Shown: positions 1,845 through 56,779 of the stretch, piece by piece
Layout of the letters: every line of letters starts with the position of its first letter
Numbering within the stretch: the stretch's first letter is position 1
From: a virus
Reading direction: 5' to 3' (one strand)
Length of the DNA: 64,000 bases
IMG/VR virus record: IMGVR_UViG_3300037042_006682
Span: 1 to 64,000 of that record
Program-made: the position numbers and the translations under genes
The notes under the pieces: generated by a model
Told to the model about the DNA's origin: nothing
What the model saw: only the letters and a program-made list of their open reading frames with translations
Databases searched by the model: none

Positions 1845-1878
1845 CGCTCCTTGCGCATGCGCGTACGCAGCGCCGTTG

Positions 1879-2310
1879 TCACTTGTCCTCGACCAGCAGC
1901 CCCGGCTTGGGGCCGTCGACCACCGTGCGGTCCGCCGAGGGGCTGGCCTCACGGTCGGCCGCCTCCTGGTCCGCCACGTCCATGGCGCTCGTGTCCGCCC
2001 ACTGGGGCTGCGCCGCATCGGGGTCCCCCGCCGGCACCGCCGCGGGCGCCCGGCTGAGGGCCGCCGTGACCGCCGCCGCCACGGCCTCGCCCTGCTTGGC
2101 CGCCCGGCGCACCGCGATGGCCGCGCCCTGCTGCCCGTGGTCCGCGATGCCCTGCGCGAGGAGCCACGCCCCGACGAGCCCGAGGACCATCAGCATGATC
2201 TCCTCGTCGATGCGCTTCCCCGTCAGCGCGTTGGTCAGGTACGCCGCCACGCTGATGAGCATCACGATCAACTTCCGGCTCTCGATCTTCAGCTTCGCCA
2301 GCCACGTCAT
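1879..2310 (-). CDS. Holin-like membrane protein (2 TM helices)
   Basis: SRKLIVMLISVAAYL and IMLMVLGLVGAWLLAQGIAD hydrophobic segments, holin-like SRK...QG.AD pattern; GAGGTG RBS. Confidence 0.55.
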   Translation of the reverse strand: MTWLAKLKIESRKLIVMLISVAAYLTNALTGKRIDEEIMLMVLGLVGAWLLAQGIADHGQQGAAIAVRRAAKQGEAVAAAVTAALSRAPAAVPAGDPDAAQPQWADTSAMDVADQEAADREASPSADRTVVDGPKPGLLVEDK

Positions 2311-2318
2311 GGATCACC

Positions 2319-2996
2319 TCACGCAGTCTTGATGAGCGCCGCGATGCCCAACCCGATGGGCGCCGCCGCCGCCATCATATCCGACTTGCTGGCCCCCAGC
2401 ACGATCTCCTCGATCGCGTGGGGCTGCAGCTCCAGCTCCATCATGCTCACCTCGGCGCTGTTCGCGTCGAAGTCCGTCCCCGCCTTGTACCGCGTGGGGA
2501 GGCAGTCCCAGAGGACCCAGACGCGCCCCGGCACGAACGAGGCGCCCTCCCAGGTCTCCAGCGGGGCCGGGAGGTCGAGGTTGTAGCCCCCCGCCTCCTG
2601 GAAGGCGTTCACGCCCGTGTAGTGGATGAGGAGCAGGGTGCGCTGCACCATGTCGGAGCCGCGCATCGCCCGCTTCACCCAGTCGTACAGCGTGTCGTCG
2701 TTCATGCGGGCCCCGCGCGTCAGCGAGATCGGCCCGCAGCCGCCCCCCTCGTAGGCCACCGTGGTCCACATGGAGTTGAGCTGCTTGATCTCCCGCGTCT
2801 GCAGGGTGATCTCCGGGGCCGTGATGCTCGCGAACCCGTACATGGGCGAGCCCAACACAAAGAAAGGGAAGGTCGTCGAAGGGATCAGGTCCAGCAGCCA
2901 GAAGCGATGCGTCTGCAACAGGTCGAACATGCGACTCTTGCTGACCGCCTTAAGCGTACCTCGCACATCGCTAGCCGTCTTCCGCACATCGACCAC
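2319..2996 (-). CDS. Tail tube-like protein (gp19-fold paralogue; tube initiator/baseplate)
   Basis: GFASITAPEITLQTREIKQ...ISLTRG...LYDW...WVLWDCLPTRYKAGTDFDANSAEVSMMELEL parallels the adjacent tube protein. Confidence 0.8.
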   Translation of the reverse strand: MVDVRKTASDVRGTLKAVSKSRMFDLLQTHRFWLLDLIPSTTFPFFVLGSPMYGFASITAPEITLQTREIKQLNSMWTTVAYEGGGCGPISLTRGARMNDDTLYDWVKRAMRGSDMVQRTLLLIHYTGVNAFQEAGGYNLDLPAPLETWEGASFVPGRVWVLWDCLPTRYKAGTDFDANSAEVSMMELELQPHAIEEIVLGASKSDMMAAAAPIGLGIAALIKTA

Positions 2997-3045
2997 TGCC
3001 TACCTCATGGCCCGCACCCCCCCCGCCGCGGGGAGACCGCAGGGA

Positions 3046-3564
3046 TCAGACAGCTTCTCCGTTGATAAACAATTGGACCGACTCGACCGCAAGGCCGAAC
3101 TCCGCGATCGACACGTCCCCGCTCGTCGCATCCATGTCCGCCGCGATCTTCACGCGAATCGGCACGCACTCCCGGCAGATGTATGTACGCCACGCGTCAC
3201 TGGCGCCAACCAAGTTCCCTTTGAAGGCCTCTTCTCGTGAGAAGTGCAGGATTTGAAGGTCAGCGCGATACTCACCACCCTTCGCCGCATTCTGGCCCCA
3301 GCGCCAGAAGTCGCTGTCGGACGCCGTGACGCCACGGGTCATGGTGACCTCGCTGAACGTCGGGATGCCGCTGAACTTCTGCGTAAAGATCGTCGTGCCC
3401 TCGCGGTACTCCACGGCGTCCATCGTCAGCTCGGGGATGCTCAGCGTGTTGAAGCCCGCCTGGACCTTGAACGCATCCGGCATCGTCGCATAACCGTCCC
3501 CAGGGACAAGCTGCACATGATAGCGGAAATTCTGATAAAAATCTGTCGAGATTGCCCGTGACAT
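3046..3564 (-). CDS. Tail tube protein (T4 gp19-like)
   Basis: AGFNTLSIPELTMDAVEYREG...KFSGIPTFSEVTMTRG...FWRW...DMDATSGDVSIAE; downstream of sheath. Confidence 0.9.
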   Translation of the reverse strand: MSRAISTDFYQNFRYHVQLVPGDGYATMPDAFKVQAGFNTLSIPELTMDAVEYREGTTIFTQKFSGIPTFSEVTMTRGVTASDSDFWRWGQNAAKGGEYRADLQILHFSREEAFKGNLVGASDAWRTYICRECVPIRVKIAADMDATSGDVSIAEFGLAVESVQLFINGEAV

Positions 3565-4997: not shown

Positions 4998-7547
4998 TCA
5001 TACAAGCGCGCGCTGACTAAATCTGAAGACGATGAACTCCGCAGGCTTGTTCGGCGCGAGGCCCACGTCGACGAACATGATGCCCTGGTCCACGGTGTTC
5101 TGCGGGTTGTTGGTCCGGTCGCAGATCACGAAGAAAGCCTCCTTGGGCGAGGTCCCCGCGAAGTAGTTCTGCTGGAAGAGGCCAAGCAGGAACGTGTCAA
5201 GCTGGAGCTTCACGCGGCCCCAGAGCTGCGGACCGTTGTTCTCGAAGACGTGCACGTGGGTCGCGTTGAACACGCTCTTCTCCACGAACTGGAAGAGGCG
5301 CGTCATCTGGATGTAGGGCCACTCGCCGCCCGCGATGTCGAGGGTCTTGGCGCCCCAGATCACGCGGCCCGTCTGCGGCCAGCTCACGAGGCAGTTGAGC
5401 TTGTCCTGGTAGCAGATGCCCACCTGCAACGGGGTGAGGTCGCGCTCCAGGCCGATCTGCCAGCTCAGCGCGCCATCGCCCGTGCCGGCCGGCGCCTTGC
5501 CGACGTTCTTGTTGATGTCGGTCGTCGCGAAGCGCCCCGCCACGTGGCCGCCGCAGGGCAGGTTGATGGCCGCCTGGGTCACGGGGTCGGTCACGCGGAT
5601 GTGCGGGTAGTACACCGCAGCGTACTTCGTGAAGCGGCCCAGGGTGAACTTCTTCCAGTTCACGGCCTCCTGCGGTTCCAGGCCCTCCGGCGCGGTGAAG
5701 ATCGCGAACTTGTCCTTGCGGAGCATGGCGTAGTCGATGACGTCCGTGCAGACCAGCTCGTCGGTTTGGAAGTCAGCGACCACGACGCTCATCATCGCGT
5801 CCACCTGGTCGAGGGCGTAGAGGCCTTTGTAGTCCGCGACGAGCGTGGCGCCCGTCACGTCGCTGCGATCAAGGGCCGAGCCATCCGCGCCGTCGAAGAA
5901 CTGCACGACCACGGCCGCGCCGGGCTGCGTGTAGTAGGTCGCGGTCTGCGGCTTCGTGATCGGGGCCTGGGCGGGGTAGGTGTCCGCCGTGGGGCCCGCG
6001 GCCGGGTTGCCCGCGATCTTCCACGTCAGCGTGCAGGCGCCCGTGGTGTAGTCCACGCGGTTCGTGCCGTTGCTGTTGAGGGCGTAGGCGCCGCAGGGGC
6101 GCTGCAGGCTGAGGTTGCCGTTGCCATCGTCGATCACGACGGGGCCGTAGTAGAGCTGCGTGATGCGCACCGCTGCCACCCCGTCGAACGTATCGGCAAG
6201 CCCGCTCACGTCGAGGGCCAGGGCGCCCGTCAGGTAGTTCACGGTACCCACGGTGTCGCCCGTGCAGTTGCCGGCCACGACCACCTTGAGGTTGCCCGCG
6301 CCGTCGTCGCCCGCGATCTTGGCGCCGTCCCCGTCCAGGGTGAAGCTCACGAGCACGCCCGCCGCCACCGAGGTCTTCGCCGTTGAGGTGTTGAGGTGGA
6401 GCTGGGTCGGCGTCGCCGGGGTCCAGGCCCACGTGGTGTCCGTGATGAGCGGGATCGTCGTGATGATCGGCAGCGGGCTGTGCTTGAAGCCGAGCTGCAT
6501 CGCCAGGGTGGTCTTCGCCACCGAGGTGCCGATCTGGTACACGAACTCCTTGTTGGCGCCGTTGTAGGCCGGGGAGTTGCTGACGTCCCTGGCCGCATAG
6601 TGCGTGCCCGCCAGCTCCGGGGGCAGCTCGCGGTTGAAGGCCACGACCGCGGCGATGTCAGAACCCGCGCTGAGGTCGTTGAGCACCGTGGCGATGAACT
6701 GCGGGCTGCTCGCGTCATCGAGCACCACCCCCTGGTAGGTCTCGATGGTGTTCCAGCCCTGGATCTTCTCGACGTACTCGTCGATGGTCACGTCAAAGCG
6801 CGTGTAGCTCGCCGTCGCGGCCACGTAGTAGTCGGGGGTCCCGCTTACGACGGCACGATAGCTGTTGCCCGCGAGGCCCGGCCACTTCAGGTCGAAGCGG
6901 AAGGTCTCGTAGACCCAGCTCGCTGTGAGGAATTGGCCCGCGGGGAAGTCGGCTGGCGTGCCGAAGGTGAGGAACACCTCGCCGGTCTCGTAGTCGATCG
7001 AGCCCGTGGTGTCTACGCCATCATCGAACCCGCCCGTGCCCGTGATGGCGAAGGTGCCATCGCCGTTGTCGGTGAAGGTCCCGATCTTCGGCACGACCTC
7101 GCCGTCCGTCGTAGTCAGCACCAAGGAGACGGCCAGCGTGTAGGGGCTGGGGCCGTAGCTGCCGTGCGGGACCACGGGGGCCTTGGGCAAGCTGAAGCTA
7201 TAGCTCACCGCGCTGTCGCCCTCCACCACCTCCATGCCTTGGACGTCCTTGGTCAGGAAGCAACGCGCCTTCACGGCATCGGCCTCATGCACCACACGCA
7301 CGAAGTACAGGGTGGAACCGCCATTCTGGAAGAAGGCAAAGGCTTCCGTCGGGGCCAATGAGGCCGCCGTGAAGTCCCCGAACTTAGCCGTAAACTCCTG
7401 GAAGGAGGTCACGATGGTCGGTTTGTTCGTGGGGCCCTTCTTGGAGAACCCGATCAGGCCGAGGTTGCTGGTGCTCACGCCCTGGATGGGGCCCGGCCCA
7501 CTGCTGCGCTCCTCAATGTACACGCCCGGATAGTTACGCTCTGGCAT
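4998..7547 (-). CDS. Contractile tail sheath protein with large internal insertion
   Basis: N-term YPGVYIEE...FF.NGG...YFVRV; C-term YYP...GHVAG...IWGAKTL...VFENN...LW...AFFVICDRTNN...GLAPNKPAEFIVFRF. Confidence 0.95.
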   Translation of the reverse strand: MPERNYPGVYIEERSSGPGPIQGVSTSNLGLIGFSKKGPTNKPTIVTSFQEFTAKFGDFTAASLAPTEAFAFFQNGGSTLYFVRVVHEADAVKARCFLTKDVQGMEVVEGDSAVSYSFSLPKAPVVPHGSYGPSPYTLAVSLVLTTTDGEVVPKIGTFTDNGDGTFAITGTGGFDDGVDTTGSIDYETGEVFLTFGTPADFPAGQFLTASWVYETFRFDLKWPGLAGNSYRAVVSGTPDYYVAATASYTRFDVTIDEYVEKIQGWNTIETYQGVVLDDASSPQFIATVLNDLSAGSDIAAVVAFNRELPPELAGTHYAARDVSNSPAYNGANKEFVYQIGTSVAKTTLAMQLGFKHSPLPIITTIPLITDTTWAWTPATPTQLHLNTSTAKTSVAAGVLVSFTLDGDGAKIAGDDGAGNLKVVVAGNCTGDTVGTVNYLTGALALDVSGLADTFDGVAAVRITQLYYGPVVIDDGNGNLSLQRPCGAYALNSNGTNRVDYTTGACTLTWKIAGNPAAGPTADTYPAQAPITKPQTATYYTQPGAAVVVQFFDGADGSALDRSDVTGATLVADYKGLYALDQVDAMMSVVVADFQTDELVCTDVIDYAMLRKDKFAIFTAPEGLEPQEAVNWKKFTLGRFTKYAAVYYPHIRVTDPVTQAAINLPCGGHVAGRFATTDINKNVGKAPAGTGDGALSWQIGLERDLTPLQVGICYQDKLNCLVSWPQTGRVIWGAKTLDIAGGEWPYIQMTRLFQFVEKSVFNATHVHVFENNGPQLWGRVKLQLDTFLLGLFQQNYFAGTSPKEAFFVICDRTNNPQNTVDQGIMFVDVGLAPNKPAEFIVFRFSQRALV

Positions 7548-7632: not shown

Positions 7633-8076
7633 CTACCGCTTGCGCCGCTGCCCCTCCTCGGGGCTCTCTGCCGCGTCCCCCACCTCCGCTGGCTGCTCCT
7701 GGTTCACCGTATCACCAGACAGCGGGGCAATCACCTTTTCCCCGGCCGCCACAGCTTGCTCTAGGGCCGTGGGCTCAACCACGCCCACGCTCACGGGGGG
7801 CAGATCGGGGTGGCGCGTAATGCCGCGCTCCGAGAAGTAGCCCGCGAACTTCGTGGGGGTCAGCGCCGTGCCGCCCCCCTCCACCTGCCTGGAGTGCACG
7901 CCGGGCTTCACATCCACAGGCTTGCCACAGGGGCGCAGGACCCCGCGCTTCACCATGGACTCCGTGCTCGGCACAAGCTGGTGGATCTCCACCTTGCCGT
8001 ACGGCGGCACCGCCACCGTGTTGCCCATCCCCGTCGCGACCGACTGCACCCGACTGCCCGTATAGAGGTACCACAT
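7633..8076 (-). CDS. Hypothetical protein
   Basis: ATG 8076 coupled to upstream TGA (MWYLYTGSRV...). Confidence 0.6.
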   Translation of the reverse strand: MWYLYTGSRVQSVATGMGNTVAVPPYGKVEIHQLVPSTESMVKRGVLRPCGKPVDVKPGVHSRQVEGGGTALTPTKFAGYFSERGITRHPDLPPVSVGVVEPTALEQAVAAGEKVIAPLSGDTVNQEQPAEVGDAAESPEEGQRRKR

Positions 8077-8792: not shown

Positions 8793-8832
8793 CTTAACTC
8801 CTCACCGCGGGCCGCGCATGCGCGTGCGCAGC

Positions 8833-9969: not shown

Positions 9970-10659
9970 TTATGCGCCCTGGGCCTGCACTTTTGGCTTG
10001 CGTTTCTTAGGCGCGTGTGCCTGCGCCTTGAGCGCCCGCCGCGTCTCGTGCCCCTTGACCGCCGCCGCGCTGCGCTTGGCCGCCACCTGCTGCACCGCCA
10101 AGGCCTTAGCCGCCTTCTTCTGCGTGCGCTGCGCGCTGATCAGCTTCGCCGCCATCTTGACGCGGCCCTCGCGCTGCTGCTCGGCCGGCTTCAGCCGCTC
10201 CATCCCCATGCGCCGCGAGGCGCCCTTGAGGTGCTGGCGGATGCCCTCCATCATGCTCTGGCGCTTGGTGCGCTTGGGCCGGAAGCCATAGTGACGCTTC
10301 ACCTGATTCTTCCAAAAGCGCATGGCCTGCTCGTAGTTCGGCTTGCCCCTCGCCACGATCCGCCCCTCAGTCGCCATGCGCGCCACCGCGCTCCACCAAA
10401 AGACCGCGGAGTCCGGGAACGGGATCTGCGCGGGATCGATCAGGTACCACGGCGGCTGCAGGTAGCGCCCGTACTTGACCTTGGCCTGCTCCATCGTCAA
10501 CTGCTCGGGCCGCGGGTTGCGCGTCGGCATGCGGGGCTGGATCGCCCGCGCCTCCAGCAAGGCCGCGAGGCGCCCCGCCAGCCCCTCGCTGCGTACACGC
10601 GTACGCAAGCCCCCCGTAATCGCCCGGAGGGCCCCCGCGAGCTGCCCCGCCGTCCTCAC
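9970..10659 (-). CDS. Highly basic protein (K/R/A-rich), candidate internal DNA-binding head protein
   Basis: Histone-H1-like C-terminus; N-terminal ALRAI...LAALLE motif. Confidence 0.6.
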   Translation of the reverse strand: MRTAGQLAGALRAITGGLRTRVRSEGLAGRLAALLEARAIQPRMPTRNPRPEQLTMEQAKVKYGRYLQPPWYLIDPAQIPFPDSAVFWWSAVARMATEGRIVARGKPNYEQAMRFWKNQVKRHYGFRPKRTKRQSMMEGIRQHLKGASRRMGMERLKPAEQQREGRVKMAAKLISAQRTQKKAAKALAVQQVAAKRSAAAVKGHETRRALKAQAHAPKKRKPKVQAQGA

Positions 10660-20790: not shown

Positions 20791-20823
20791 ACCTCGCTCT
20801 GCGCATGCGCATGCGCAGCGTCG

Positions 20824-24436: not shown

Positions 24437-27202
24437 TCATGACAGGCCGGAAAGTTGCCGCATCGTTGCGGGGTCCAGGCCGAAGTCGGCCAAGTCGCCC
24501 GCGCCCGCCGTGCCTGCCCCGCGTGGGGCCACGGTCTCCTCCTCCAGCGTCGCCGGACGCCCCTGACCACGCGTCAACTGCGCGCGCATGCGCTCCAGCT
24601 GCCCGTCGCCCATCGTCGTCCGTCCCCGCTGCCGCACCAGCCGATCGACCTCATCTATGCTCGCAACACCCTCTAGCAACCCCATCAACTCGCGCCCGTT
24701 CGTCAACCCTGCGACGCTCTCGGCCTTGTACGCCGCGAGGTCTGCCGCGGCCCGCGCCTCGGCTAGATCCCGCTGTAGCGTGGCGACGCGCTGCTCGGAT
24801 CCCCGTGCGCGCGCCTCCAGGCCCTCGCCGCCTTCAACAGCCAGCTTCAACTGCATCTGCTTCTCGGCCAGTCTCTCGTGCAATTCCTGCGACTCCGCGA
24901 GGAGCCGCTTGCGCTCGCCCTCCCACCGCCGCGTGGCCTCGGCCAGCGGGTTGGGGGCAAGGGGGAGCTTCTCTAGCTGCCGCAGCACGCCACGCACGCG
25001 CGTACGCACCTCGGCCTCGTCTTCTAACAGCCCGGCGTCGGCCAGCAGCTCGCGCGCCATCGCCGCGTGCGGGTGCGTCCCCACGAGGCGCTCCGCGAGC
25101 AGCTGGAAGCCCGCCTCACGGGCCACCCCGCGATAGGCCTCCGCCTGCTCACGCAAGCCCGCGATCTCCGTGCGCTGCGCCTGCAGAGCCGCCGCCACGT
25201 GGTCCTCGGGGACCGCCGGCAGGTAGGGCCGCAGGAGCTGCGCCACCGTGGCCAGCACCGCGCCCGCACCGTCCGCCTCGGCCTCCTCCCGCAGCTCCGC
25301 GCGCACCTCGGCCCGCAGCCCCTGCAGGGCCTCGATGAGCCCGTGCTCGAAGCGCTCGCGCTCCTCCTCACGGGCCGCCGCCACGGCCGCCTCGACGTCC
25401 GTGCTCGCCGCCGCCTGGAGCGCCGCCTGCGCCTTCGCCAGGGCGCGCTCCATCAGCCCCTCCTCTAAAGCCGCCAGGGCCTCGGGGATCTGCGCCTGCA
25501 GGACGTCGGTCGCGTAGGGCGTGTTCACATCCTCATTGAAGATCTCGGGGTACGCCGTCTTCATCGCGGGGTCCGCCACGAAGTCCCAGGTCTTGAGATT
25601 GTAATCCTCGCATACGTCCTCGCCGTCCCCGCTCTCGCTCGGCTTCGTGCTCCCAAAGCCCCGCGAGCTGACGCCGATCTCCACCCCGTGGCGGATCAGC
25701 GCCGCAAGCGTACGGCCGTTCGGCGTATCGAGAATCTCCGCAGCCCCCAACACGAGCCCATCATCAGCGATGGATGCCTCGGTGATTAGGGCCGCCGCGC
25801 GCTGTAACATCGTCTTGCCATCGCTATTGCCCGTCCAGAACGCCTTACCCGCACGCTCCATGTAGAAGTTTCCGTGCATCACCGTCAGGCAGTAAATGTT
25901 GCCTTCGTGGTGGACCTCCTCGATGCCGAGGAAGCGCGGATCCAACCAGATATTCTCCGAGTTACTCAAGTGCAACTGGTACAGCGGCACCTTATTCTCG
26001 GCCTTGATCGTGTGCCCGGCGTACTCATAGTCCTTGTCCGGATCGATCCGCGACAGTGTCCCGGCCCCGCCATAGCGCACCGTGCACTCGTGTAGGTCAC
26101 GAATGAGGCGCTCGGAGACGGAAAAGACGTCCTTGCGCGAATAGGTCGCGTTCGACTCGCGAAGCGCCGTGGCCCACGCCTGTTTGTGCGTGATGCCTTG
26201 CTCCTCTAGCGCCGCGTCCTTCTTGTGCGCATTGACCATGCGCCCGTCGCCGATGCCGAACCAGAAGACCAGCTCACGCAGGGCGTCTGGCCCCAGAGCC
26301 TTGACGCCCTCGGGGATGTACCGTTCATAAGCGTTGCCAAGCCCCTTAAGATAAGTGTGGAAGCGCTTGTCCGTCATACGGAAACCCTTCTCATACTCAT
26401 CCCAGCGCAACTCGCTCGGGAACTTGTCCAGAATCTCGGCCTTCACGTACTCGCGCACCCACGGCGTCGTCAGGCTAATCACCACGCCATAACGACCGTT
26501 GTCCTCCGGCGTGCAGAACCCCTCAGCAAGGTAGATACCCATGAAGGCCGAGAACAAGTTGGCATCCATGCGCACGGGCTGCGTCACGTCGTTGTGGAAG
26601 CGGTTCCCGCCCTCTACGCTCGGGATGACGACCTCGGTCGGGGCCTCGACGCTATCCCACCGCGCCGTCTTCGGCACAGCATACTTTGCATACTTTCCGG
26701 GATCATCGGCAATCTCAGCAATCGTCGCGTAGTGTTCCTTGTCAGGATTCCCCTTGCGGGGCTTCTGCTGCAGCAAGAAACGATGCGCCGGAGTGAAAGT
26801 CGCATCAATCGATCGCCCCTGTACGTGGTAGGCAGGACCGCTATACGGCTGGTCCACGATGCCATCGACCGTCGAGAGCACCGCCTGGCCATCAATACGC
26901 GACCATACGCGATCGCCCACTGCCACATCGCGGAAGGCCTTCCATCCGCTGGCCGTAAGTACGCGGAAGTCATCCGAGGTCAAGCAGGGGTGGTCCAGCT
27001 CACTGAGCACGCGCCGCCGCTTGATGTTCTCCTGAAGCTTCTTGACCTCGCGCTCATAGATCGCACGGGAATAGCGCCGGCCATTCTGCGTCGGGGTGTC
27101 GTAGCGCCCAAACTCGCCGCGGGCCACGAGCTTGCCCGTGCCCTTGTCCTCGGTCAGGGTGAACGTCGTGGTGATCGTCTCAGTCAGCAGCTTGCCGCTC
27201 AT
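24437..27202 (-). CDS. Prohead maturation protease (T4 gp21-like) fused to a coiled-coil scaffold; contains 1 intein
   Basis: NGRRY...ELDHP|intein|S...EILDTPNG...GVSSRGFGS...DFVADPA, then ~350-aa Ala/Glu/Arg coiled coil. Confidence 0.9.
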   Translation of the reverse strand: MSGKLLTETITTTFTLTEDKGTGKLVARGEFGRYDTPTQNGRRYSRAIYEREVKKLQENIKRRRVLSELDHPCLTSDDFRVLTASGWKAFRDVAVGDRVWSRIDGQAVLSTVDGIVDQPYSGPAYHVQGRSIDATFTPAHRFLLQQKPRKGNPDKEHYATIAEIADDPGKYAKYAVPKTARWDSVEAPTEVVIPSVEGGNRFHNDVTQPVRMDANLFSAFMGIYLAEGFCTPEDNGRYGVVISLTTPWVREYVKAEILDKFPSELRWDEYEKGFRMTDKRFHTYLKGLGNAYERYIPEGVKALGPDALRELVFWFGIGDGRMVNAHKKDAALEEQGITHKQAWATALRESNATYSRKDVFSVSERLIRDLHECTVRYGGAGTLSRIDPDKDYEYAGHTIKAENKVPLYQLHLSNSENIWLDPRFLGIEEVHHEGNIYCLTVMHGNFYMERAGKAFWTGNSDGKTMLQRAAALITEASIADDGLVLGAAEILDTPNGRTLAALIRHGVEIGVSSRGFGSTKPSESGDGEDVCEDYNLKTWDFVADPAMKTAYPEIFNEDVNTPYATDVLQAQIPEALAALEEGLMERALAKAQAALQAAASTDVEAAVAAAREEERERFEHGLIEALQGLRAEVRAELREEAEADGAGAVLATVAQLLRPYLPAVPEDHVAAALQAQRTEIAGLREQAEAYRGVAREAGFQLLAERLVGTHPHAAMARELLADAGLLEDEAEVRTRVRGVLRQLEKLPLAPNPLAEATRRWEGERKRLLAESQELHERLAEKQMQLKLAVEGGEGLEARARGSEQRVATLQRDLAEARAAADLAAYKAESVAGLTNGRELMGLLEGVASIDEVDRLVRQRGRTTMGDGQLERMRAQLTRGQGRPATLEEETVAPRGAGTAGAGDLADFGLDPATMRQLSGLS
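25826..26986 (-). mobile_element. Intein (387 aa) with LAGLIDADG endonuclease in the prohead protease
   Basis: Starts CLTSDDFRVLTASGW, block B TPAHRF, GIYLAEG and FGIGDG motifs, ends YCLTV..GNF...WTGN|S. Confidence 0.9.
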
Positions 27203-28460: not shown

Positions 28461-29328
28461 CGTCGCCGTCTCCTTGTTCGTTGGGGTCGCGGCCCCGCCC
28501 TGCGAGGTAGCCCGCGACGATCACCATGTGCCTGGCCCGCTCCGCGCACGTCCCATGCGCCCTTGCCATCCGCGCGACATCCCGTGGGACGTCCTCCAGC
28601 ATCAACCGTTCGGCACGTGTGAGCGCGGCCACCATGGCCTCCGCCTCGCCGATCAACGAACTCCTGATGGCGTCCAGGTCCGCTTCGCCCTTATCAAATC
28701 GCACGGATCGGCCCTCGTCAAGGATTTGGGCGTACGCCGCCTTGAGCCCCTCGACGGCCATCCGCAATTCGCCCACTGGGATCCCCGTGTCGGGGCGCCC
28801 CGCGAAGGTCGCGGGATCGGGGACGCGCGCCTCGCGCGCCCGCACCTCGCCCCACATGCGCCGGCGGATGCGCTCCGCGTCCACGAGGTACCAGCGCTGC
28901 CACGCCGCATCCTGCGCGGCCTCGATCTCCGCCACCGCGTCCACGAGCCAGTAGCGCTCCCCCGCCTCGACCAGATGGGCGAGGTTGCGCATGCGCATGC
29001 GCGAGGCCTCCCCCGCACACCGCCCCTCCGCGACGTCCCGCACGAGGGCCCGCACCTGCCCCGCCACGTAGCGCGGGACCTCGGCCTCGCCGATCGCCGC
29101 CACCGCGTAGGGCCCGTGCCCCCGCAGGGCCACCGCGCCGCCCACGCAGTCGTAGTCCACGCGCTCGAAGCGCTCCTCGTCGTCGACGACCACCGCGCGG
29201 TCCACCCACGTCGCGACGGCCCGCACGGGGCGCTGGAGCGCCGCGCTCGCCGCCCGCTCGATCTGGTCGATCAGCGCCTCGTAGCTCCCCGCCCGCATCT
29301 CCGCGAGCTGCGCCTCGGTGATGTACAT
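28441..29328 (-). CDS. Hypothetical head-assembly protein
   Basis: 295-aa ORF immediately after portal; GGAGG RBS. Confidence 0.6.
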   Translation of the reverse strand: MYITEAQLAEMRAGSYEALIDQIERAASAALQRPVRAVATWVDRAVVVDDEERFERVDYDCVGGAVALRGHGPYAVAAIGEAEVPRYVAGQVRALVRDVAEGRCAGEASRMRMRNLAHLVEAGERYWLVDAVAEIEAAQDAAWQRWYLVDAERIRRRMWGEVRAREARVPDPATFAGRPDTGIPVGELRMAVEGLKAAYAQILDEGRSVRFDKGEADLDAIRSSLIGEAEAMVAALTRAERLMLEDVPRDVARMARAHGTCAERARHMVIVAGYLAGRGRDPNEQGDGDDGTADH

Positions 29329-38591: not shown

Positions 38592-38666
38592 CGCTCCGCT
38601 CCGCTCGCAACATCAGCTGTCCACCTACAACGGGGCCGCGCATGCGCATGCGCAGCGCGCGCCCAC

Positions 38667-39221: not shown

Positions 39222-39227
39222 GCTGCC

Positions 39228-39257: not shown

Positions 39258-39290
39258 GGATCGCGTCGATCGCGCCGCGCGGGCGCGGGC

Positions 39291-39357: not shown

Positions 39358-39385
39358 ACAAGCCATCATGGGAGCCAACGCCATC

Positions 39386-39415
39386 ACCGTAGCGGGCCAC
39401 CCCCGCTGCTGTCAA
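39386..39415 (-). promoter_or_regulatory. Putative sigma70 promoter TTGACA-N18-TACGGT
   Basis: Perfect -35; same -35/-10/spacer length as the 43916..43945 promoter. Confidence 0.65.
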
Positions 39416-39425
39416 GGGAGAAGCG

Positions 39426-40454
39426 TTAGGGCTTCGCGTTGCCGATGTCGGCCAGGGTGGTCTCGCCGAAGAGGATCTCCGGGGCGCCCCCCGCGAAGGC
39501 CACGAGGCGGACCTGCGTGAGGTCCTGCAGGGCCTTGAGGTGCCCGGCCAGGTCCAGCGTGGGATCGGGCAGCGCCGCGGCCGGGGCCTCCGGGGCCTCC
39601 GCGCCGGCCTGCTCCGCCGCCTCCAACAGGGCCCCGCCGTAGAGGACCTTGCCGTCCTTGGGGTCGACCGCCACGATGCGCCAGCCCGTCGCGTGCTCCA
39701 CCTGCGCGAGGTACTCCGCGGGCTCGTTGCGGTTCATGTTCGTCGCCAGGAACTCCGTACAGATCATCGCCAGAGCGTGCGGCTCGCTCTCCGAAGCCGC
39801 CATGTCGCACGCCTTCTTGATCGCCCGCTCCACCGTGTCGACTTGCGACCGCATGAGGTTCCGGCTCCACTTGACGGGCTTCTGCTGGATCTGGAGCTTC
39901 TCCTCGTCCTCGTCCGCCGCCGCGCTAGTCCCCAGGCCGTTGAGGCGCTCCTGCTCCGCGTCGACCTCGCCCCGCACGAGCTTCTGCACGTCGCGCGTGC
40001 TCAGGCCCTCCACGCGGCCCAGCCAGTGCTCCGCGTTCTCCGCCGTGACCACCGGCGCGAGGTCGCGCGCCTTCGAGGCCCCCAAGCGGTCGATGCGCTC
40101 CTGCAGGGGCGCCGGGAGCGTGCGCCTCCACGCCCAGATCTGCACGAGGTACTGGGCCTTGCGCAGCTCGAAGTCGACCTCCGACTCCACGTACTCCTTC
40201 CACGAGGCGAACCCCCACGTCTGGTACAGCACCTTGTCGTACACGTGCCAGAGGGCCTCGCTCAGCTTCCAATAGTTGCTCTCGACGTTCGCCCGCAGGC
40301 GCTTCACGTCCTTGCGCACCTTCTCGGGCGCCCACTCGGCGAGGCGATCCTCGATCCCCACCTCCGCCGCGGGTTCCCCCACGCACGCCAGCTCCGTGTG
40401 CAGCCGCTCCGTCAAGACCTCCAGCACTGCCAACTCATCCTGCTTCTTCGCCAT
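39426..40454 (-). CDS. Putative DNA-binding protein (DUF3102/ParB-HTH-like)
   Basis: LSEALWHV...LYQTWGFASWKEYVESEVDFELRKAQYL...LGASKARDL; start ATG 40454 with GGAG RBS. Confidence 0.55.
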   Translation of the reverse strand: MAKKQDELAVLEVLTERLHTELACVGEPAAEVGIEDRLAEWAPEKVRKDVKRLRANVESNYWKLSEALWHVYDKVLYQTWGFASWKEYVESEVDFELRKAQYLVQIWAWRRTLPAPLQERIDRLGASKARDLAPVVTAENAEHWLGRVEGLSTRDVQKLVRGEVDAEQERLNGLGTSAAADEDEEKLQIQQKPVKWSRNLMRSQVDTVERAIKKACDMAASESEPHALAMICTEFLATNMNRNEPAEYLAQVEHATGWRIVAVDPKDGKVLYGGALLEAAEQAGAEAPEAPAAALPDPTLDLAGHLKALQDLTQVRLVAFAGGAPEILFGETTLADIGNAKP

Positions 40455-40471
40455 CACTCCACTCGCTTTCC

Positions 40472-40491
40472 TTGCGTACGCGCGTACGCAA
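40472..40491. promoter_or_regulatory. Perfect 20-bp palindrome TTGCGTACGCGCGTACGCAA (member of the dispersed 18-bp family)
   Basis: Intergenic, 17 nt upstream of ATG 40454; the identical 18-mer also occurs at 44953 and 56749. Confidence 0.6.
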
Positions 40492-40509: not shown

Positions 40510-41073
40510 CTAGAACAGCTTCTCTTGCTTCCACTCAAACGATCCTACGTCAACCGCCCCGCCCGTTAAGCGGTGTAGGTGCAGGGCCGCCACCGCCCAG
40601 GCGTCCGCCTGGTTGTGGTCCGCCACGGGCACCCCTTGCTTTAGCACGTGGGGCAGGATCTTGTCCTTCTTGAGGTTCCCCTTGCCGAAGATCTCCTTGC
40701 GGATCTGGCTCACGATGTAGAGCGCGGGCTCCACCCGGCACGCCAGCCACAGCTGCGTCTTCACGACCCCGTGCAGCTCCCCGAGGTCGTTCTGGGCCCC
40801 GCGTGCCCCCCAGGCGAACTGCTCGATGGCCACCCCGCAGGGGGCCGGTGCCGCCCGGTAGGCCCGCACCACCGCCGTCGCGATGTCGAGCATGCGCTCC
40901 ACGCGCTCCCGCGTCGTGGCCGTGCGCTTCAGCGCGTACCCCACGGTCTCCGCCGCCCAGACAGAGCCCGTGGCCCCGTCGAGCGTTACAAGGCCGGCCC
41001 CCCGATCCGAAAGATCGAGCCCGAGCACGCTCCCAAGGGTATTGTCTTGCCCGTTGTGCATATTCAAAACCAC
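40510..41073 (-). CDS. ruvC: RuvC-like Holliday junction resolvase
   Basis: VLGLDLS..GAG...VAIEQ...LGELHGVV...GKGN..K...HNQADAWAVA. Confidence 0.85.
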   Translation of the reverse strand: MVLNMHNGQDNTLGSVLGLDLSDRGAGLVTLDGATGSVWAAETVGYALKRTATTRERVERMLDIATAVVRAYRAAPAPCGVAIEQFAWGARGAQNDLGELHGVVKTQLWLACRVEPALYIVSQIRKEIFGKGNLKKDKILPHVLKQGVPVADHNQADAWAVAALHLHRLTGGAVDVGSFEWKQEKLF

Positions 41074-42434: not shown

Positions 42435-42440
42435 GACACT

Positions 42441-43811: not shown

Positions 43812-43915
43812 CGGGGACTCCTACGGGGGGGAGGACACTGAGAGGCGACGCGGTCCAGGGATCCCCCCCGTGGGGCCGCGGCCCACCCAGAGCGCGACAT
43901 GCGCGGGGCCCCAGC

Positions 43916-43945
43916 ACCGTACCGCGCAGGCCACAGATTTGTCAA
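43916..43945 (-). promoter_or_regulatory. Putative sigma70 promoter TTGACA-N18-TACGGT
   Basis: Intergenic; matches 39386..39415. Confidence 0.65.
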
Positions 43946-43949
43946 CCGC

Positions 43950-44836: not shown

Positions 44837-45130
44837 TCAGCGCCGCGTCCCGTCGTGCGGCTCGATGATCGCCTGGACCCGCGCCTGGAGCTGCCGCTCC
44901 TCGGCCGGGGTCCACCCGCTGGCCCGCGCGACCGGCGTCGGGGGGGGCGCCTTGCGTACGCGCGTACGCAGCTTCGCGTCGCAGGCCTGCTCCTGGTGCA
45001 GGCGCCGCGTCAGCTCCGCCGCGACCCCCATGGCCTCGTGGCTCACCACCACGAGGAGGGTCGCCAGCAGCACGACGAGGCCGCTCATCACCGCGATCCA
45101 GATGCTCCGCACGTACACGCTCGTGTTCAT
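44837..45130 (-). CDS. Small single-TM protein
   Basis: IWIAVMSGLVVLLATLLVVV; start at ATG 45130. Confidence 0.55.
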   Translation of the reverse strand: MNTSVYVRSIWIAVMSGLVVLLATLLVVVSHEAMGVAAELTRRLHQEQACDAKLRTRVRKAPPPTPVARASGWTPAEERQLQARVQAIIEPHDGTRR

Positions 45131-45980: not shown

Positions 45981-47098
45981 GCTTCACAACGCCCCAAAAG
46001 AATCGCCAAGTACTCATCTGCAATCGCACGATCACTATTCTTCTCCGGCTCAGGCAGCTCTGCATAGGGGGTCTTGGCCTGGCGGTACCACTGCGCGATG
46101 GCCTCGTGCCCCCACGCGAGCCCCGCCCCGCCCTCAGCATCGGTCGTCAGCGCGATGAGCCCCGCGTGCTCCCCCTGCCACGCCATCCAGCGCGCCCACA
46201 CCATGTGGACGTGATCCGCGAGGGCCTCCCGCCGCTCGCGCATGCGCATACGCAGCGCCGCGTCCGCATCGGTCAGGATCCCGATGGCCCACCCCACGTC
46301 CGCCCGCAGGAGGGACTCCAGGACCCGCCGCGCCCACTCCGCCAGCGTGGATGGGGGCACATGTAGCCCCGCCTCGCCGGTCAACAGGCACAGCGCATCG
46401 AACACGGCGAAGGCCGCGGTCTCCTGCGCATCGGCCCGCAGCGCCTCGGCCGGCGGGGCACCCGCCGTCAGCTGGGCCCGCTCCGCCTCGCGCTCCTGCC
46501 GCTGCTTCGTCAGCAGGAAGTCGTGCATGGCCATCATGGCGTTGGCGAACCAGCCCCGCATGAGGTCAAGGTCCGCCGTGGGATAGTGCGCGCAGTAGAG
46601 GCGCGCCCAGGCGTCCGCATCCGGGTTGCAGTGGATGCTGTGGTCGTAGTCGGCCACATCGACCGCGTCCTCGGGCTGGCCCTCGGCGGGCTGGTCGGGC
46701 GTGTCGTCACAATACGGCGCCACGGGGCCCAGGCACCGCGCGGCCAGCCCCTGCGTCACGCGCACCCCGTGCCCGCCCTCGTCGGTCCAGAGGCCCCCGC
46801 TGCCGTCCCGCACCACGCGGCGCACCACGCGCTTCTCGGCGCCATCCGCGCCGTCCTCCTCGAACCAGAAGTACCCCTCCACGCCCGGCTGCACGCCCTC
46901 GAACGTGGCCAGCAGGGCCCGGTCCACGGCCGCCCCGATCGCATCACTCAGCGCATCGTCGTGGTAACTCCGCGAGCCATCTGGGTGCGTCGTCCACCCC
47001 TCCACGGGACCCAGGGCGTCAATCGTCCGGTCCAGGGCCGCCAATCCCTCCGCTGGGGCCGACGTCCCCCCGCTATGCTTTGCCTCCTCACGCATCAA
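45977..47098 (-). CDS. Mosaic hypothetical protein with a C-terminal RyR-like motif
   Basis: ALADHVHMVWARW...TPYAELPEPEKNSDR. Confidence 0.55.
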   Translation of the reverse strand: MMREEAKHSGGTSAPAEGLAALDRTIDALGPVEGWTTHPDGSRSYHDDALSDAIGAAVDRALLATFEGVQPGVEGYFWFEEDGADGAEKRVVRRVVRDGSGGLWTDEGGHGVRVTQGLAARCLGPVAPYCDDTPDQPAEGQPEDAVDVADYDHSIHCNPDADAWARLYCAHYPTADLDLMRGWFANAMMAMHDFLLTKQRQEREAERAQLTAGAPPAEALRADAQETAAFAVFDALCLLTGEAGLHVPPSTLAEWARRVLESLLRADVGWAIGILTDADAALRMRMRERREALADHVHMVWARWMAWQGEHAGLIALTTDAEGGAGLAWGHEAIAQWYRQAKTPYAELPEPEKNSDRAIADEYLAILLGRCEA

Positions 47099-53049: not shown

Positions 53050-53111
53050 GTCGTCCTCCGGGCGCAGCGCCCACCGGCCGGGGGCGCGCCATGCGCACCG
53101 GGCCTCCTGGA

Positions 53112-53141
53112 AACATGCGCACGATCGCCCAGGTTTGTCAA
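53112..53141 (-). promoter_or_regulatory. Putative promoter TTGACA-N18-CATGTT
   Basis: Perfect -35 in a GTTGACAAA context, intergenic. Confidence 0.45.
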
Positions 53142-53151
53142 CACAAAAGCA

Positions 53152-53892: not shown

Positions 53893-54101
53893 GGGCCATC
53901 CCCGTCGAGACAATCACAGATGTAGTCAAGCCGCCTGGCATCCACTTGGTATCCGTGGGCCCGCGCCTCATCTCGCAGAAGAACCACGCGCTCCCGCAAG
54001 TCCGCCAAGGCCCCCGCCCAGCGCCGCACCCGTTCCTCCTCCTGCTCTGCCGCAGACAAGGGCGCCGGAAGGTCGGGAAAGATCACCATCTGCATGCTCA
54101 T
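53889..54101 (-). CDS. Small hypothetical protein
   Basis: GGAGG RBS; coupled. Confidence 0.5.
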   Translation of the reverse strand: MSMQMVIFPDLPAPLSAAEQEEERVRRWAGALADLRERVVLLRDEARAHGYQVDARRLDYICDCLDGDGP

Positions 54102-54631
54102 GGCTGGGCCTCCCAGTGCCCGTGGCTCCCGTCCTCGACGCCCACGTAGCCCCGCCCGCAGTCCGGGCACACCAGGGGCCATCCCGCCCGCACCACGAGG
54201 GGGGCCCGCACGCGCTCCCCGCAGGCGCACTCCATCTGGCCCCACCCGTGGTGGGGACAGGGGTCGTCACAGAAATCATCGCAGGTGCAGCGCCCCGCGA
54301 CGGCGAGCGGCACAGGGGCCTCCGGGGGCCGCACCACCCCCGCCAGCGTCCGCCACGCCCCCTCGACCCAAGGCGCAAGCGTCTCCCGGCCCGCCATGGT
54401 CAGCGAGGCCTGGGGGCACGGCACGAAGGCCCCATCGTCGTCGACCTCCCCCGTCACCGCGAGCAGGGCATCCGCCGCCGCGCGCACCCGCGCCAGCTCC
54501 GCCCGCAGGCGCTCCAGCTCCGCCGCCAGCGCCCCCGCGATGGACCCGTCTTCGACCAGCGCCATCACGCGGTCCGCCGCCGGCTGGGCCAGCCACCCGC
54601 GTACCACCCGCTCGTGCGTGCTCGTGCTCAT
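54098..54631 (-). CDS. Hypothetical protein with Cys-rich C-terminus
   Basis: AAGGAG RBS; CTC...CP.H, C.CG...CPDCG. Confidence 0.5.
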   Translation of the reverse strand: MSTSTHERVVRGWLAQPAADRVMALVEDGSIAGALAAELERLRAELARVRAAADALLAVTGEVDDDGAFVPCPQASLTMAGRETLAPWVEGAWRTLAGVVRPPEAPVPLAVAGRCTCDDFCDDPCPHHGWGQMECACGERVRAPLVVRAGWPLVCPDCGRGYVGVEDGSHGHWEAQP

Positions 54632-54882
54632 GGCTTCTCTCCTTGCGCACGCGCGTGCGCCGCGTGGACCTCGCGGAAGGCCGCCCCCACGCGCCCCATC
54701 CACGCCGTCTCATCCGCGTTGAGGGGCCAGACCTTGATCTCCACCTGGACGCCCCCCACGCGCTCGATCAACTTGTCGAGGGCCGCCTGGACCTCCGTGA
54801 TGGCCCCCTCGGGGACCCCCGGCCACGGCGTCACGACCCCGTGCGCCGAGCGCCGCTTGTTCCAGCCCCGCTCCTCACTCAT
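54628..54882 (-). CDS. Small hypothetical protein
   Basis: Coupled ORF. Confidence 0.5.
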   Translation of the reverse strand: MSEERGWNKRRSAHGVVTPWPGVPEGAITEVQAALDKLIERVGGVQVEIKVWPLNADETAWMGRVGAAFREVHAAHARAQGEKP

Positions 54883-56179
54883 GGGGCACCTCGCGGATCG
54901 CGCCGTCCTCGATGATCACGGCCCCCGGCCCCCGGTCGCCGACGACCTCGATCCAGACCTGGGCGTCCGCCTGCTCGGCCATCGCGACCACGGCCGCCAG
55001 CGAGGCGTCGTCGAGCAGCGCGCCCTCCCGCAGCAGCACGACGCGGATCTGGGGGTTGGACGCGAAGCCCAGCCCCACCGCCACGCGGAGCTGCTCCGCC
55101 GAGGAGCACTGCGCCAGGGGGATGCCGCCCCACGTGACCCCGCGCTCGTCGAGGCCGAGCCCCACGAGCCCCACCTCGGCCACCGCCGCGGCGACCTTGG
55201 CCTCCCGCGCCGCGTCCATCGCCGCGAGCTGCGCCGTGAGGTCCCCGCTCGCAGCCTCCGCCTGGGCGAGGGCCGCCTGGCTCGCCGCCCACGCCGCATG
55301 CGCGTCCCGCTTCCGCACCACCTCGTTGGCCGCCCGGATCTCGTCCTGGATGTCCCCCACCGTCCGGCGCCCGCGCAACCGCTCCTGCGCCTCTGCGACG
55401 GCCAGCTTCTTCTGCTCTGCGACCTCGCGCAGCCGATCCGCCTTGGCCCGCGCCTCCCCCAGCTTGGCCTGGAGCTGCGCGATCTCGGCCTCCAGCTCCC
55501 GCACGCGCGTGGCCATGGCGTCGGCCTCCCACCGCGTCCGCCCCGCCTCGGCATCGGCAGCCTTCACCATCTCCGTCGCGGCATCGAACGTCCGCAGCTC
55601 GGCCAGGAGGGCCTCCGTGTCGCGCCCCTCCGCGGGCACCACGGGCTCCGCCCCGAGCGCCGCCCGCAGCCGCCCGACCTCGCGGTTGACCTCGGTCCGC
55701 TGGTCGAAGGTCCGCTTGCGCTCCGCGTCGAGGGCCGCCACGTTGGTCCCGAGAATACCCTCCAGCTGCTTGACCTGCCCCTTCACGTCTGCCCGCACGA
55801 AGTCCAGGGGGTCAAAGGTGAGCGCCCCCACCATGCGGTCGAGGATCTTCTGAGGCGACTGCAAGGCGTCCCCCTCCGCGTTGCGGACCACCAACGTGGC
55901 CCCACCGGGCTTGATCACGCGCTCGACGGTGAGTCCCCCGAGGTCTACGCGGATCGTCGCGCGCTCCTCCCCCGCGCGGATCGGCATCTCGGGCAGCGCC
56001 CGGCCCCCGCCCAGAGCGTAAAACAGCGAGTCGAGCAGGCTGCTCTTCCCCTGCGCGTTGGCCCCCCCAATGATCACCGCGTGCTTGGCGGGGTCGAAGG
56101 CGACCGCCCGCAGGCGCTTCACGTTCTCCGCCTCCAGCCGCACCACGCGAAACGTCTTGTCCGTCTGCTCAGCTTCCAC
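54875..56179 (-). CDS. SMC/Rad50-like AAA ATPase
   Basis: LEAENVKRL, Walker A GANAQGKSS, coiled coil, signature SSAEQ, Walker B/D-loop VVLLREGALLD. Confidence 0.85.
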   Translation of the reverse strand: MEAEQTDKTFRVVRLEAENVKRLRAVAFDPAKHAVIIGGANAQGKSSLLDSLFYALGGGRALPEMPIRAGEERATIRVDLGGLTVERVIKPGGATLVVRNAEGDALQSPQKILDRMVGALTFDPLDFVRADVKGQVKQLEGILGTNVAALDAERKRTFDQRTEVNREVGRLRAALGAEPVVPAEGRDTEALLAELRTFDAATEMVKAADAEAGRTRWEADAMATRVRELEAEIAQLQAKLGEARAKADRLREVAEQKKLAVAEAQERLRGRRTVGDIQDEIRAANEVVRKRDAHAAWAASQAALAQAEAASGDLTAQLAAMDAAREAKVAAAVAEVGLVGLGLDERGVTWGGIPLAQCSSAEQLRVAVGLGFASNPQIRVVLLREGALLDDASLAAVVAMAEQADAQVWIEVVGDRGPGAVIIEDGAIREVPHE

Positions 56180-56191
56180 GCGCCACTCCTC

Positions 56192-56734
56192 TCAGCGGTC
56201 AAGCCCCAGCGTGAGGCCATCCGCCCACTGCTTATCAGCCCTCTGTTGGTCTACAAGCGCATACCAGCCCGCGTCGATCGCCCGCACCGACACCAGGTAG
56301 GCGCAGTCCTCCGCGTGGCGGTTCAGGTGGGCCTCGGCCAGGCCGCACGTGCAGGCCCGCAGCTCCCCGTGGCGGCGCGCGCGGTAGGCCTCGTAGGCCG
56401 CCAGCTCTTCTTCTGACCACTGCGTAATTTGTCGATCCATCATTCCACCTTCCCGAAGCTTGCGATGTCGAAGGAAAACAGCAGGCACGGCTGCACCTGC
56501 CCCTCCTCGCACCACGCCCGGATCGGGCACGTCCCGCGCCGCCTCACGCGCCAGGAGGCCCTCATCACGTATCACGCCCAGGCGCCAGAGCTGCGTGCAG
56601 GCGTCATCGAAGGCCCCCCGCGCCGCCGCCGCCCACAAGAGGTCCGCCGCCTCGGGGGCCATGGGCTGGTGCACCGCCGCCGCCGTGTACTGCGCAAAGA
56701 TCGCGACCAAGGCTTCCTTCGGATTCACCGCCAC
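56192..56734 (-). CDS. Hypothetical protein (internal in-frame start near 56443)
   Basis: GAGGT SD upstream of GTG; second SD GGAAGGTGG before MMDRQIT; start uncertain. Confidence 0.45.
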   Translation of the reverse strand: MAVNPKEALVAIFAQYTAAAVHQPMAPEAADLLWAAAARGAFDDACTQLWRLGVIRDEGLLAREAARDVPDPGVVRGGAGAAVPAVFLRHRKLREGGMMDRQITQWSEEELAAYEAYRARRHGELRACTCGLAEAHLNRHAEDCAYLVSVRAIDAGWYALVDQQRADKQWADGLTLGLDR

Positions 56735-56779
56735 CGTGCACCTCTCGCTGCGTACGCGCGTACGCAATATCGCCCGTCG

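Follow-up and report, generated by a model that had tools for sequence, protein, structure and literature searches.

Repeated symmetric palindromes in an uncultured T4-like phage clade and a candidate ParB-type binding protein

Setting and layout of the palindrome

The virus record IMGVR_UViG_3300037042_006682 has a length of 161,208 bp, and the window analyzed here comprises its first 64 kb. The window has a GC content of 68%, and every gene is located on the minus strand. It contains a T4-like virion module with genes for the sheath, a Gp23-type capsid protein, the prohead protease, the portal and an intein-rich large terminase, whereas the replication genes (DnaB-type helicase, Toprim primase and SNF2 helicase) are not T4-like. 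Dispersed among these genes is an 18-bp palindrome, which occurs at about 28 sites in the whole record. The analysis of this element demonstrated that the sites are real and subject to selection, that they are symmetric and lack polarity, and that they occur family-wide with even spacing.

A megablast search found no close cultured relative, and the capsid protein is at most 32% identical to that of any cultured phage. Pfam and PHROGs searches with about 70 proteins gave mostly no matches. Five IMG/VR fragments (G001 to G005) share 80-96% DNA identity with the record. Fragment G001 runs from record position 146911 across the record end and about 3.3 kb of extra sequence to position 5; because it joins both ends, the record is short of a complete genome by only this 3.3 kb. 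Judged from this overlap, the record probably represents a near-complete genome of about 164.5 kb with circular permutation or terminal redundancy; the completeness figure given for it is 88%. For comparison with the genome of this record (G000) we used capsid-anchored and hub-anchored loci, together with eight whole relatives with capsid identities of 42-64%.

A first-pass annotation had placed the consensus YGCGYAYRCGCRTRCGCA at 11 positions of the window. Ten of these match exactly, and the copy at 54644 deviates by one mismatch (TGCGCACGCGCGTGCGCC, plus strand). Two degenerate extra copies were detected, with one and two mismatches (Table 1). Three identical perfect palindromes (TGCGTACGCGCGTACGCA) and one perfect variant (TGCGCATGCGCATGCGCA) could be confirmed, and the copy in front of the ribosome-binding site of gene 39426-40457 indeed extends to 20 bp when the flanks are included. 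The enrichment over a matched background that had been suggested as a check was also evident. Strict sites with the center GCGC number 9 in the window, where Markov models of order 0-5 predict 0.0005-0.003, and 23 in the whole record, where 0.001-0.008 are expected; 100 dinucleotide shuffles of the window yielded no consensus match.

The sites show a recurrent layout. At about 18 of the roughly 28 record sites the order is a stop codon, 2-20 nt, the palindrome, 12-26 nt including the ribosome-binding site, and a start codon. As the first-pass annotation had noted, seven window sites are located close upstream of a start codon (at a distance of 12-45 nt: 1852, 8813, 20800, 38637, 40473, 54644 and 56749), and four of the listed sites, to which the degenerate copy at 24991 can be added, lie within genes. 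The truly intragenic sites of the record, six in number, are all read in a single frame, encoding R-(T/M)-R-(V/M)-R.

Table 1. Palindrome copies of the window and genes of putative DNA-binding and neighboring proteins
Feature	Position	Strand	Match to consensus	Context	In relatives
Palindrome	1852..1869		exact; coding strand TGCGTACGCGCATGCGCA	9 nt past stop codon, 13 nt before start of gene 1572-1838	kept in G001 and G003
Palindrome	8813..8830		exact	2 nt past stop codon, 20 nt before start of gene 8076-8792	G009 junction holds the palindrome of G009
Palindrome, intragenic	10590..10607		exact; one center departure (GCGT)	gene 9970-10659, L-R-T-R-V-R-S	kept in G001 and G003
Palindrome	20800..20817		exact; perfect palindrome TGCGCATGCGCATGCGCA	between gp13-like gene 20824-21534 and gene 20335-20784	orthologous gap of L055 (capsid identity 63%) carries another palindrome, CGGCACACGTGTGCCG
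Palindrome, intragenic	24991..25008		degenerate, 1 mismatch	prohead protease gene, V-R-T-R-V-R-G	G007 orthologue also has a site in the gene
Palindrome, intragenic	28986..29003		exact	head gene 28441-29328, S-R-M-R-M-R-N	
Palindrome	38637..38654		exact	12 nt past stop codon, 5' of 258-amino-acid gene 37815-38591, which precedes the large terminase gene	
Palindrome	40473..40490		exact; perfect palindrome TGCGTACGCGCGTACGCA, 20 bp with flanks	between RuvC-like gene and candidate binder gene, 15 nt before start codon of the latter	present in G004
Palindrome, intragenic	44953..44970		exact; perfect palindrome TGCGTACGCGCGTACGCA	gene 44837-45130, L-R-T-R-V-R-K	
Palindrome, intragenic	46237..46254		exact	gene 45977-47095, L-R-M-R-M-R-E	
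Palindrome	54644..54661		1 mismatch	in last codons of open reading frame 54628-54882, 12 nt before start of gene 54098-54631	
Palindrome	56749..56766		exact; perfect palindrome TGCGTACGCGCGTACGCA	13 nt past stop codon, 14 nt before start of gene 56192-56734	
Palindrome, family membership doubtful	58502..58519		weak, 2 mismatches	inside gene 58359-59063	
Candidate binder gene	39426..40457	minus		343 amino acids; modeled ParB/KorB-type helix-turn-helix domain, residues 40-165; predicted symmetric dimer interface, residues 172-240	
RuvC-like Holliday-junction resolvase gene	40510..41073	minus			directly upstream of candidate gene in G000, G006, G007, G014 and G015
Ribbon-helix-helix protein gene	record 157768-157974	minus		68 amino acids; outside the window	

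Two further occurrences were observed outside the window. A 12-bp short form (TGCGCATGCGCA) in an intergenic gap at record position ~115954-116017 may be a decayed or minimal site. A copy at record position 70630-70647 is located about 9 nt upstream of the 5' end of a tmRNA gene (record 70272-70620, minus strand; unusual tag AKQQEYQAAA) and directly follows a terminator-like hairpin with a T-run.

A family-wide element probably read as duplex DNA

Each relative that we examined in this uncultured T4-like clade possesses its own repeated palindrome of 14-16 bp. All of them fit GCG-N10-CGC, the outer GCG and CGC being universal among the genomes examined, and most fit CG-nAnn-(C/T)G-nnTn-CG. The individual versions are GCGCACGCGCGTGCGC in G006 (22 copies), GCG(A/C)ACACGTGT(G/T)CGC in G007 (42 copies), GCGAACCCGGGTTCGC in G009 (7 copies in 58 kb), GCGAACTCGAGTTCGC in G008 with its GC content of 35% (3 exact copies, or 5 of the 14-bp core, in 30.5 kb), GCGAACT(TG/CA)AGTTCGC in G015 (26 copies), GCGAACT(CC/GG)AGTTCGC in G014 (about 26 copies), GCGACCACGTGGTCGC in G012 (7-9 copies) and TGCGTCCATGGACGCA in G011 (6-8 copies); several other lineages carry GCAAT..ATTGC in varying copy number. 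Unbiased word counts returned the palindrome as the top or a near-top repeated 10-mer in G000, G006, G007, G008, G009 and G015; for G014 they gave a related word. When 2.9 million viral contigs were scanned for the window motif, multiple sites per contig were detected only in this lineage, and single matches occurred at chance level. We found no description of this palindromic element in a literature search, and to our knowledge no such system has been published for T4-like phages.

The positions of the sites are conserved as well, in agreement with the second check that had been suggested: every G000 site that is covered by a relative stays in place there. In a comparison of 14 pairs of orthologous sites, changes affected the 12 fixed positions in only 2 of 168 cases (1.2%), compared with a rate of 11.6% for flanking positions. 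At the six Y/R positions a change was observed in 30 of 84 cases, in each instance a transition, while the flanks contained 71 transitions and 58 transversions. The spacing is also non-random. In three genomes the coefficient of variation of the gaps was 0.63, 0.76 and 0.40 (P = 0.007, 0.045 and <0.0002), against about 0.95 for random placement; the sites are thus spaced more evenly than expected by chance. Some positions are retained between lineages with differing motifs, most clearly in the head gene 28441-29328. At the position of its site G007, G006 and G009 carry the palindrome of their own lineage, generated by synonymous changes within a peptide that reads R-T-R-V-R in four lineages (R-M-R-M-R here). 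Since this site was retuned synonymously to the palindrome of each of four lineages, the nucleic-acid element as such must be under selection.

Such a distribution could in principle be produced by selfish or recombinogenic repeats at the boundaries of exchangeable gene cassettes, and promoter-stem-loop cassettes have reportedly been proposed for T4-type phages. The sites are located at gene junctions, identical copies could support recombination, and the repeats of Cluster O mycobacteriophages were linked to insertions and deletions (PMC4351075). The genes next to the sites are, however, not enriched in accessory functions and rather tend towards higher conservation, the positions are stable between lineages, and breaks in the alignments of G000 with relatives do not fall at the sites. 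We rejected this idea on account of the missing accessory enrichment and consider it extremely unlikely.

The symmetry of the element provides information about the form in which it is read. The half-sites of G007, GCGAAC and GCGCAC, form 10 A/A, 9 C/C and 20 mixed sites, which is exactly the expectation for independent halves; in a hairpin, the mixed sites would place A.G or C.U mismatches in the stem of half of the copies. In G015, in which all genes are located on one strand, the coding strand shows the asymmetric center as TG in 14 copies and as CA in 9. Because the centers occur both ways, the element has no polarity relative to the transcript. Degenerate variants in G006 are likewise symmetric. 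Furthermore, positions 7 and 10, the would-be tetraloop bases, are complementary in every lineage (G..C, A..T, C..G, T..A). These observations point to duplex DNA read by a protein with two-fold symmetry and lend computational support to the proposal of the first-pass annotation that the sites bind a dimeric phage protein in an operator or parS-like network.

The same annotation had considered RNA hairpins or processing sites. A GC-rich intercistronic hairpin that serves as processing site, 3' stabilizer, terminator or attenuator would be in line with the finding that all sites are transcribed, that most are located 0-20 nt past a stop codon and directly 5' of the Shine-Dalgarno sequence, with some in 5' untranslated regions, and that the predicted folds reach -5 to -13 kcal/mol; T-runs follow two of the G007 copies. 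According to a hand tally the two halves match in 19 of 27 G000 sites, compared with about 8.7 under independence, and the mismatches at positions 5/14 are six times U.G and once C.A, which would suit an RNA stem. In G001, on the other hand, C.A and U.G mismatches are nearly equal in number. The lack of polarity in G015 and the independent halves of G007 also contradict a hairpin, the complementarity at positions 7/10 is not needed by a tetraloop, variation follows fixed sequence classes instead of free compensatory changes, and an Rfam search of the window matched no family. The compensatory pairing and the single polarity of T7 RNase III-type intercistronic hairpins are not found in the phage palindromes. 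An RNA-level element is therefore unlikely to be the primary function, although the folding potential and the matched halves of G000 indicate that a secondary RNA effect may exist.

The first-pass annotation had also predicted Z-DNA propensity from the strict purine/pyrimidine alternation. An importance of the alternation itself, as Z-DNA, supercoil sink or topoisomerase site with no sequence-specific reader, would fit this lineage, in which all 18 positions alternate and all 30 changes are transitions that preserve the alternation. The alternation is absent from the A-variant of G007 and from the elements of G009, G008 and G015, and relatives keep the palindrome in forms such as GCGAAC.., ..CCCGGG.. 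and ..TCGA... Moreover, 12 positions are fixed as exact bases and not merely as R or Y. Because relatives keep the element without alternation we removed this idea, to which we assign hardly any probability.

Candidate binding proteins

A role as promoter element was evaluated with the distribution of promoter motifs. On the coding strand, no copy of the T4-type late promoter TATAAATA was found. As neither the capsid gene nor the sheath gene is preceded by a palindrome, the palindromes are not a general late promoter. Sigma70-like promoters of the TTGACAAAC type are found in non-structural regions; in G007 they share gaps with palindromes, which is the case in neither G000 nor G006. As this association is restricted to G007, a function as promoter operator was rejected, and the sites are neither late promoters nor general promoter operators.

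In the window, sigma70-like promoters on the coding strand with an extended -35 element (gTTGACAAAC, about 17 nt, TA-rich -10) were noticed in the gaps ~53050-53151, 43812-43949, 62549-62631 and 39120-39425. They are confined to the non-structural part, and G007 contains 31 copies of the same word. The promoter at ~43.9 kb heads an operon of exonuclease, methyltransferase, RuvC-like and candidate binder genes. A second short motif, GACAC(A/T)CAAGGAG, which includes the ribosome-binding site, precedes several genes of the tail/baseplate region (record 157975-158033, 158964-159175, 134477-134536 and 137327-137386). Three DNA methyltransferase genes are encoded (window 41129-42739, L152:14702-15562 and L152:15764-16801; types PHROG 1008, N6_N4 and D12 Dam-like), which makes heavy methylation of the phage DNA probable. 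Three CpGs, 6 bp apart, are among the invariant bases of the palindrome.

The product of gene 39426-40457 had been named as the best candidate binder. It has no Pfam match and belongs to one PHROG family of unknown function. In an AlphaFold2 (AF2) model calculated with 17 homologues, residues 40-165 reached a predicted local distance difference test (pLDDT) value of about 90, and residues 1-33 were modeled as disordered. The top Foldseek matches were mostly ParB/Spo0J/Noc domains bound to parS or to Noc-binding sites (NBS). VIA-align gave Z scores of 9.6 for 4umk (root mean square deviation 3.3 A, 108 aligned residues), 8.9 for 6t1f, 8.4 for 6y93 and 6.8 for the KorB-operator complex 1r71, and the matches cover 106-111 residues of domains of 114-121 residues. 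In a search independent of Foldseek, 8 of 48,161 chains reached a Z score of 5, all of them ParB/Spo0J/KorB domains or the N-domain of Raf1; SopB and VirB came next.

A homodimer of this protein is predicted with a score of 0.42, the best control reaching 0.00; the runs agree in at least 62% of the contacts with pLDDT values of at least 66. Of 30 solved homodimers 20 attained this mark, as did 1 of 23 single chains; these counts are only rough because our own alignment was used. The predicted interface is symmetric and is formed by residues 172-240, just past the DNA-binding domain. The modeled ParB/Spo0J/Noc/KorB-type domain and the predicted dimer make this protein a plausible candidate, but a ribbon-helix-helix (RHH) protein is a live rival. 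The autoregulation geometry that had been proposed for the gene holds in G000 and G004, but not in G006 or G007. For the second protein that had been suggested as a binder, 58359-59063, we obtained just a sub-threshold match to DUF6471. The phage ParBs that were described in a recent paper as partners of thymine dioxygenases are without a DNA-binding domain, so that this paper has no bearing on the present case.

The candidate is present in all eight larger genomes searched. Wherever it was found, its gene directly follows the RuvC-like gene, but it adjoins the terminase genes only in G000, and a link to the terminase was dropped for this reason. The putative recognition helix, G-W-(T/S)-K-A-(R/K)-x-L, shifts together with the half-site class.

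The rival protein consists of 68 amino acids and could bind the sites instead of or along with the ParB-fold protein, as a beta-ribbon dimer like Arc, CopG, ParG and MatP. It is the sole match to Pfam RHH_1 in the record (23.9 bits, cut-off 20.5), and of 79 hub-anchored relatives about 46 have a recognizable orthologue immediately upstream of the gene for the baseplate hub. Among solved structures the centromere-binding protein ParG comes closest (E = 4e-7); the RHH domain of MatP (4d8j) is also listed (E = 0.15). In four lineages the gene possesses a sigma70-like promoter of its own, but this promoter is without a palindrome. In the DNA-binding strand, W in place of E/D at position 6 goes with a different palindrome (GACC-N4-GGTC) or with few copies, whereas four lineages with differing palindromes share the same DNA-facing residues R2, N4 and E6, and strand variants and motif classes map uncleanly onto each other. 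As far as we know from Arc, MetJ and CopG, a fully conserved perfect palindrome of 16 bp is not the usual layout of an RHH operator. All characterized members of the ParB-type fold known to us, in contrast, read perfect palindromes of 13-16 bp as dimers. We ranked the candidate 39426-40457 above the RHH protein, whose role as reader of the sites we regard as possible but doubtful.

A Bro-N + KilAC antirepressor-like gene (record 158034-158963, minus strand) directly upstream of the RHH gene recalls the arc/ant region of P22; it is not conserved in the relatives. At the position of the RHH gene, upstream of its hub gene at 6071-6799 (L185), G012 encodes a protein of about 210 amino acids with a zinc-ribbon-like CxxC pair and two tandem RHH repeats, which would form a single-chain pseudo-dimer.

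A host protein such as LexA might also read the sites, and the phage might in this way sense or soak up a host repressor. The palindromes of G007, G009, G008, G015 and others have the form GCGAAC-N4-GTTCGC and contain the Gram-positive/actinobacterial SOS core CGAAC-N4-GTTCG; the LexA motif of Streptomyces is tCGAAC-N4-GNNCGa with 16 bp (PMC9380542). The phage has no LexA of its own, as neither LexA nor an S24 peptidase was found to be encoded. However, the window motif CGYAY-GCGC-RTRCG and the CGCAC of G006 deviate from GAAC, and the four bases of the center, which are free in SOS boxes, do not vary within any one phage. The motifs drift between close phages together with the phage proteins, and the sites are mostly located away from promoters (only one of 11 promoter-bearing gaps in G000 holds one), whereas SOS boxes are located at promoters. 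A host reader is thus very unlikely.

Proposed function and known systems

On balance, we lean towards the interpretation that the palindromes are double-stranded DNA docking sites of a phage-encoded dimeric protein, most likely the product of 39426-40457, and may form a genome-wide operator network. We infer which protein binds the sites, and we can only guess at what the binding achieves. Two copies of the 343-amino-acid protein, each composed of a ParB/KorB-type helix-turn-helix domain followed by a dimerization domain and devoid of a CTPase clamp domain, would each read one half of a site. The approximately 28 sites, one per 4-6 kb, would mark the genome at gene junctions and at a few tolerated in-frame intragenic positions. 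Bound dimers would then most probably hinder or time transcription across the junctions, like KorB operators or mycobacteriophage stoperators; our confidence in such a modulation of transcription is low. Alternatively, they might organize or mature the phage DNA, considering that the gene of the binder is always paired with a RuvC-like resolvase gene.

Besides the matched halves and the U.G excess of G000, several points weigh against this interpretation. The tool warns that for helical domains Z scores such as the 8-9.6 obtained here can reflect a common arrangement, and the candidate has no similarity at the sequence level to any ParB or KorB protein. PF02195, the N-terminal CTPase domain of ParB, was unmatched anywhere in the 161-kb record while control genomes were matched, and PF13614 (ParA) was unmatched in the same record, which falls short of the full genome by about 3.3 kb. 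The covariation of the helix motif with the half-sites follows clades and may thus reflect shared ancestry. The palindrome in front of the gene of the candidate itself is restricted to the lineage of G000 and G004 and is not found in G006 or G007, and with the RHH protein a second conserved dimeric DNA binder exists. Finally, a role at the level of promoters is not general, because the association with sigma70-like promoters is limited to G007.

As a more tentative extension, the whole uncultured T4-like clade (35-71% GC) may use a clamp-less ParB-fold dimer, possibly together with the RHH protein, to read its 20-40 palindromes, with their even spacing, as a ruler along the genome. This ruler would divide the genome, with its genes on a single strand, into units for timed transcription or would recruit the resolvase for maturation of the DNA, and co-evolution of protein and site would provide each lineage with a private code.

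If the docking interpretation is correct, a conserved unannotated phage protein would gain a DNA target and a role, and DNA reading of the ParB type would have been reused without a CTP clamp in large virulent-type phages. The clade would then offer a natural series of co-evolving protein-site pairs, useful for the study of drift in DNA-binding specificity. The even spacing and the synonymous retuning in the head gene represent selection on a genome-wide layout, which has rarely been documented in phages.

Several known systems resemble the phage sites in part. MatP of E. coli is an RHH dimer that reads dispersed palindromic matS sites and organizes a stretch of the chromosome, with 23 sites of different sequence in 800 kb. 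This system fits the RHH rival and the even spacing, and the link consists of the weak profile similarity mentioned above. With regard to the other RHH operator systems (Arc, CopG, ParG), the phage encodes a conserved RHH protein, the strand residues of which stay the same in four classes of the motif and differ in the lineages with W. The stoperators of the cluster A phage L5 occur, like the phage sites, in many copies in short intergenic gaps of co-directional operons, where the bound repressor hinders passing transcription; unlike the palindromes, which are symmetric and without polarity, they are asymmetric 13-bp sequences with one orientation to transcription and serve lysogeny.

The half-sites of ParB and Noc, TGTTTC or ATTTCC, differ from the GCG.A.. 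of the phage elements. Noc/NBS and ParB/parS (6y93, 6t1f, 4umk) share with the phage system perfect palindromes of 14-16 bp, which are dispersed over the chromosome in the case of Noc, and their centers CACGTG (parS) and CCCGGG (NBS) recur in the motifs of G007 and G009. The phage differs from both in having neither the CTPase domain nor a ParA partner.

Cluster O mycobacteriophages contain more than 30 copies per genome of a 17-bp dyad repeat, TGTTCGG-N3-CCGAACA, for which the authors suggested a dimeric binding protein (PMC4351075). As in the T4-like clade, these repeats are found in short intergenic gaps and in some coding regions, their positions are kept between relatives, and they have no clear orientation (PMC4351075). 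They differ by an unrelated phage type and sequence and by a free spacer of 3 bp; a binder was not proposed on the basis of a fold, and neither a family-wide drift of the motif nor even spacing was reported (PMC4351075).

The KorB/OB system of the IncP-1 plasmid RK2 (PMC11790492; 1r71, 8qa8) differs in that KorB possesses the N-terminal CTPase domain of ParB and acts as a sliding clamp together with KorA, whereas the phage protein is without this domain and has no detectable sequence similarity, and in that the phage sites are mostly located in transcribed gene junctions of a virulent-type T4-like phage. Both systems have in common many dispersed palindromes, the KorB operators comprising 16 bp and being located near or far from promoters (PMC11790492), and a dimer with a ParB-type helix-turn-helix domain, which is predicted in the case of the phage.

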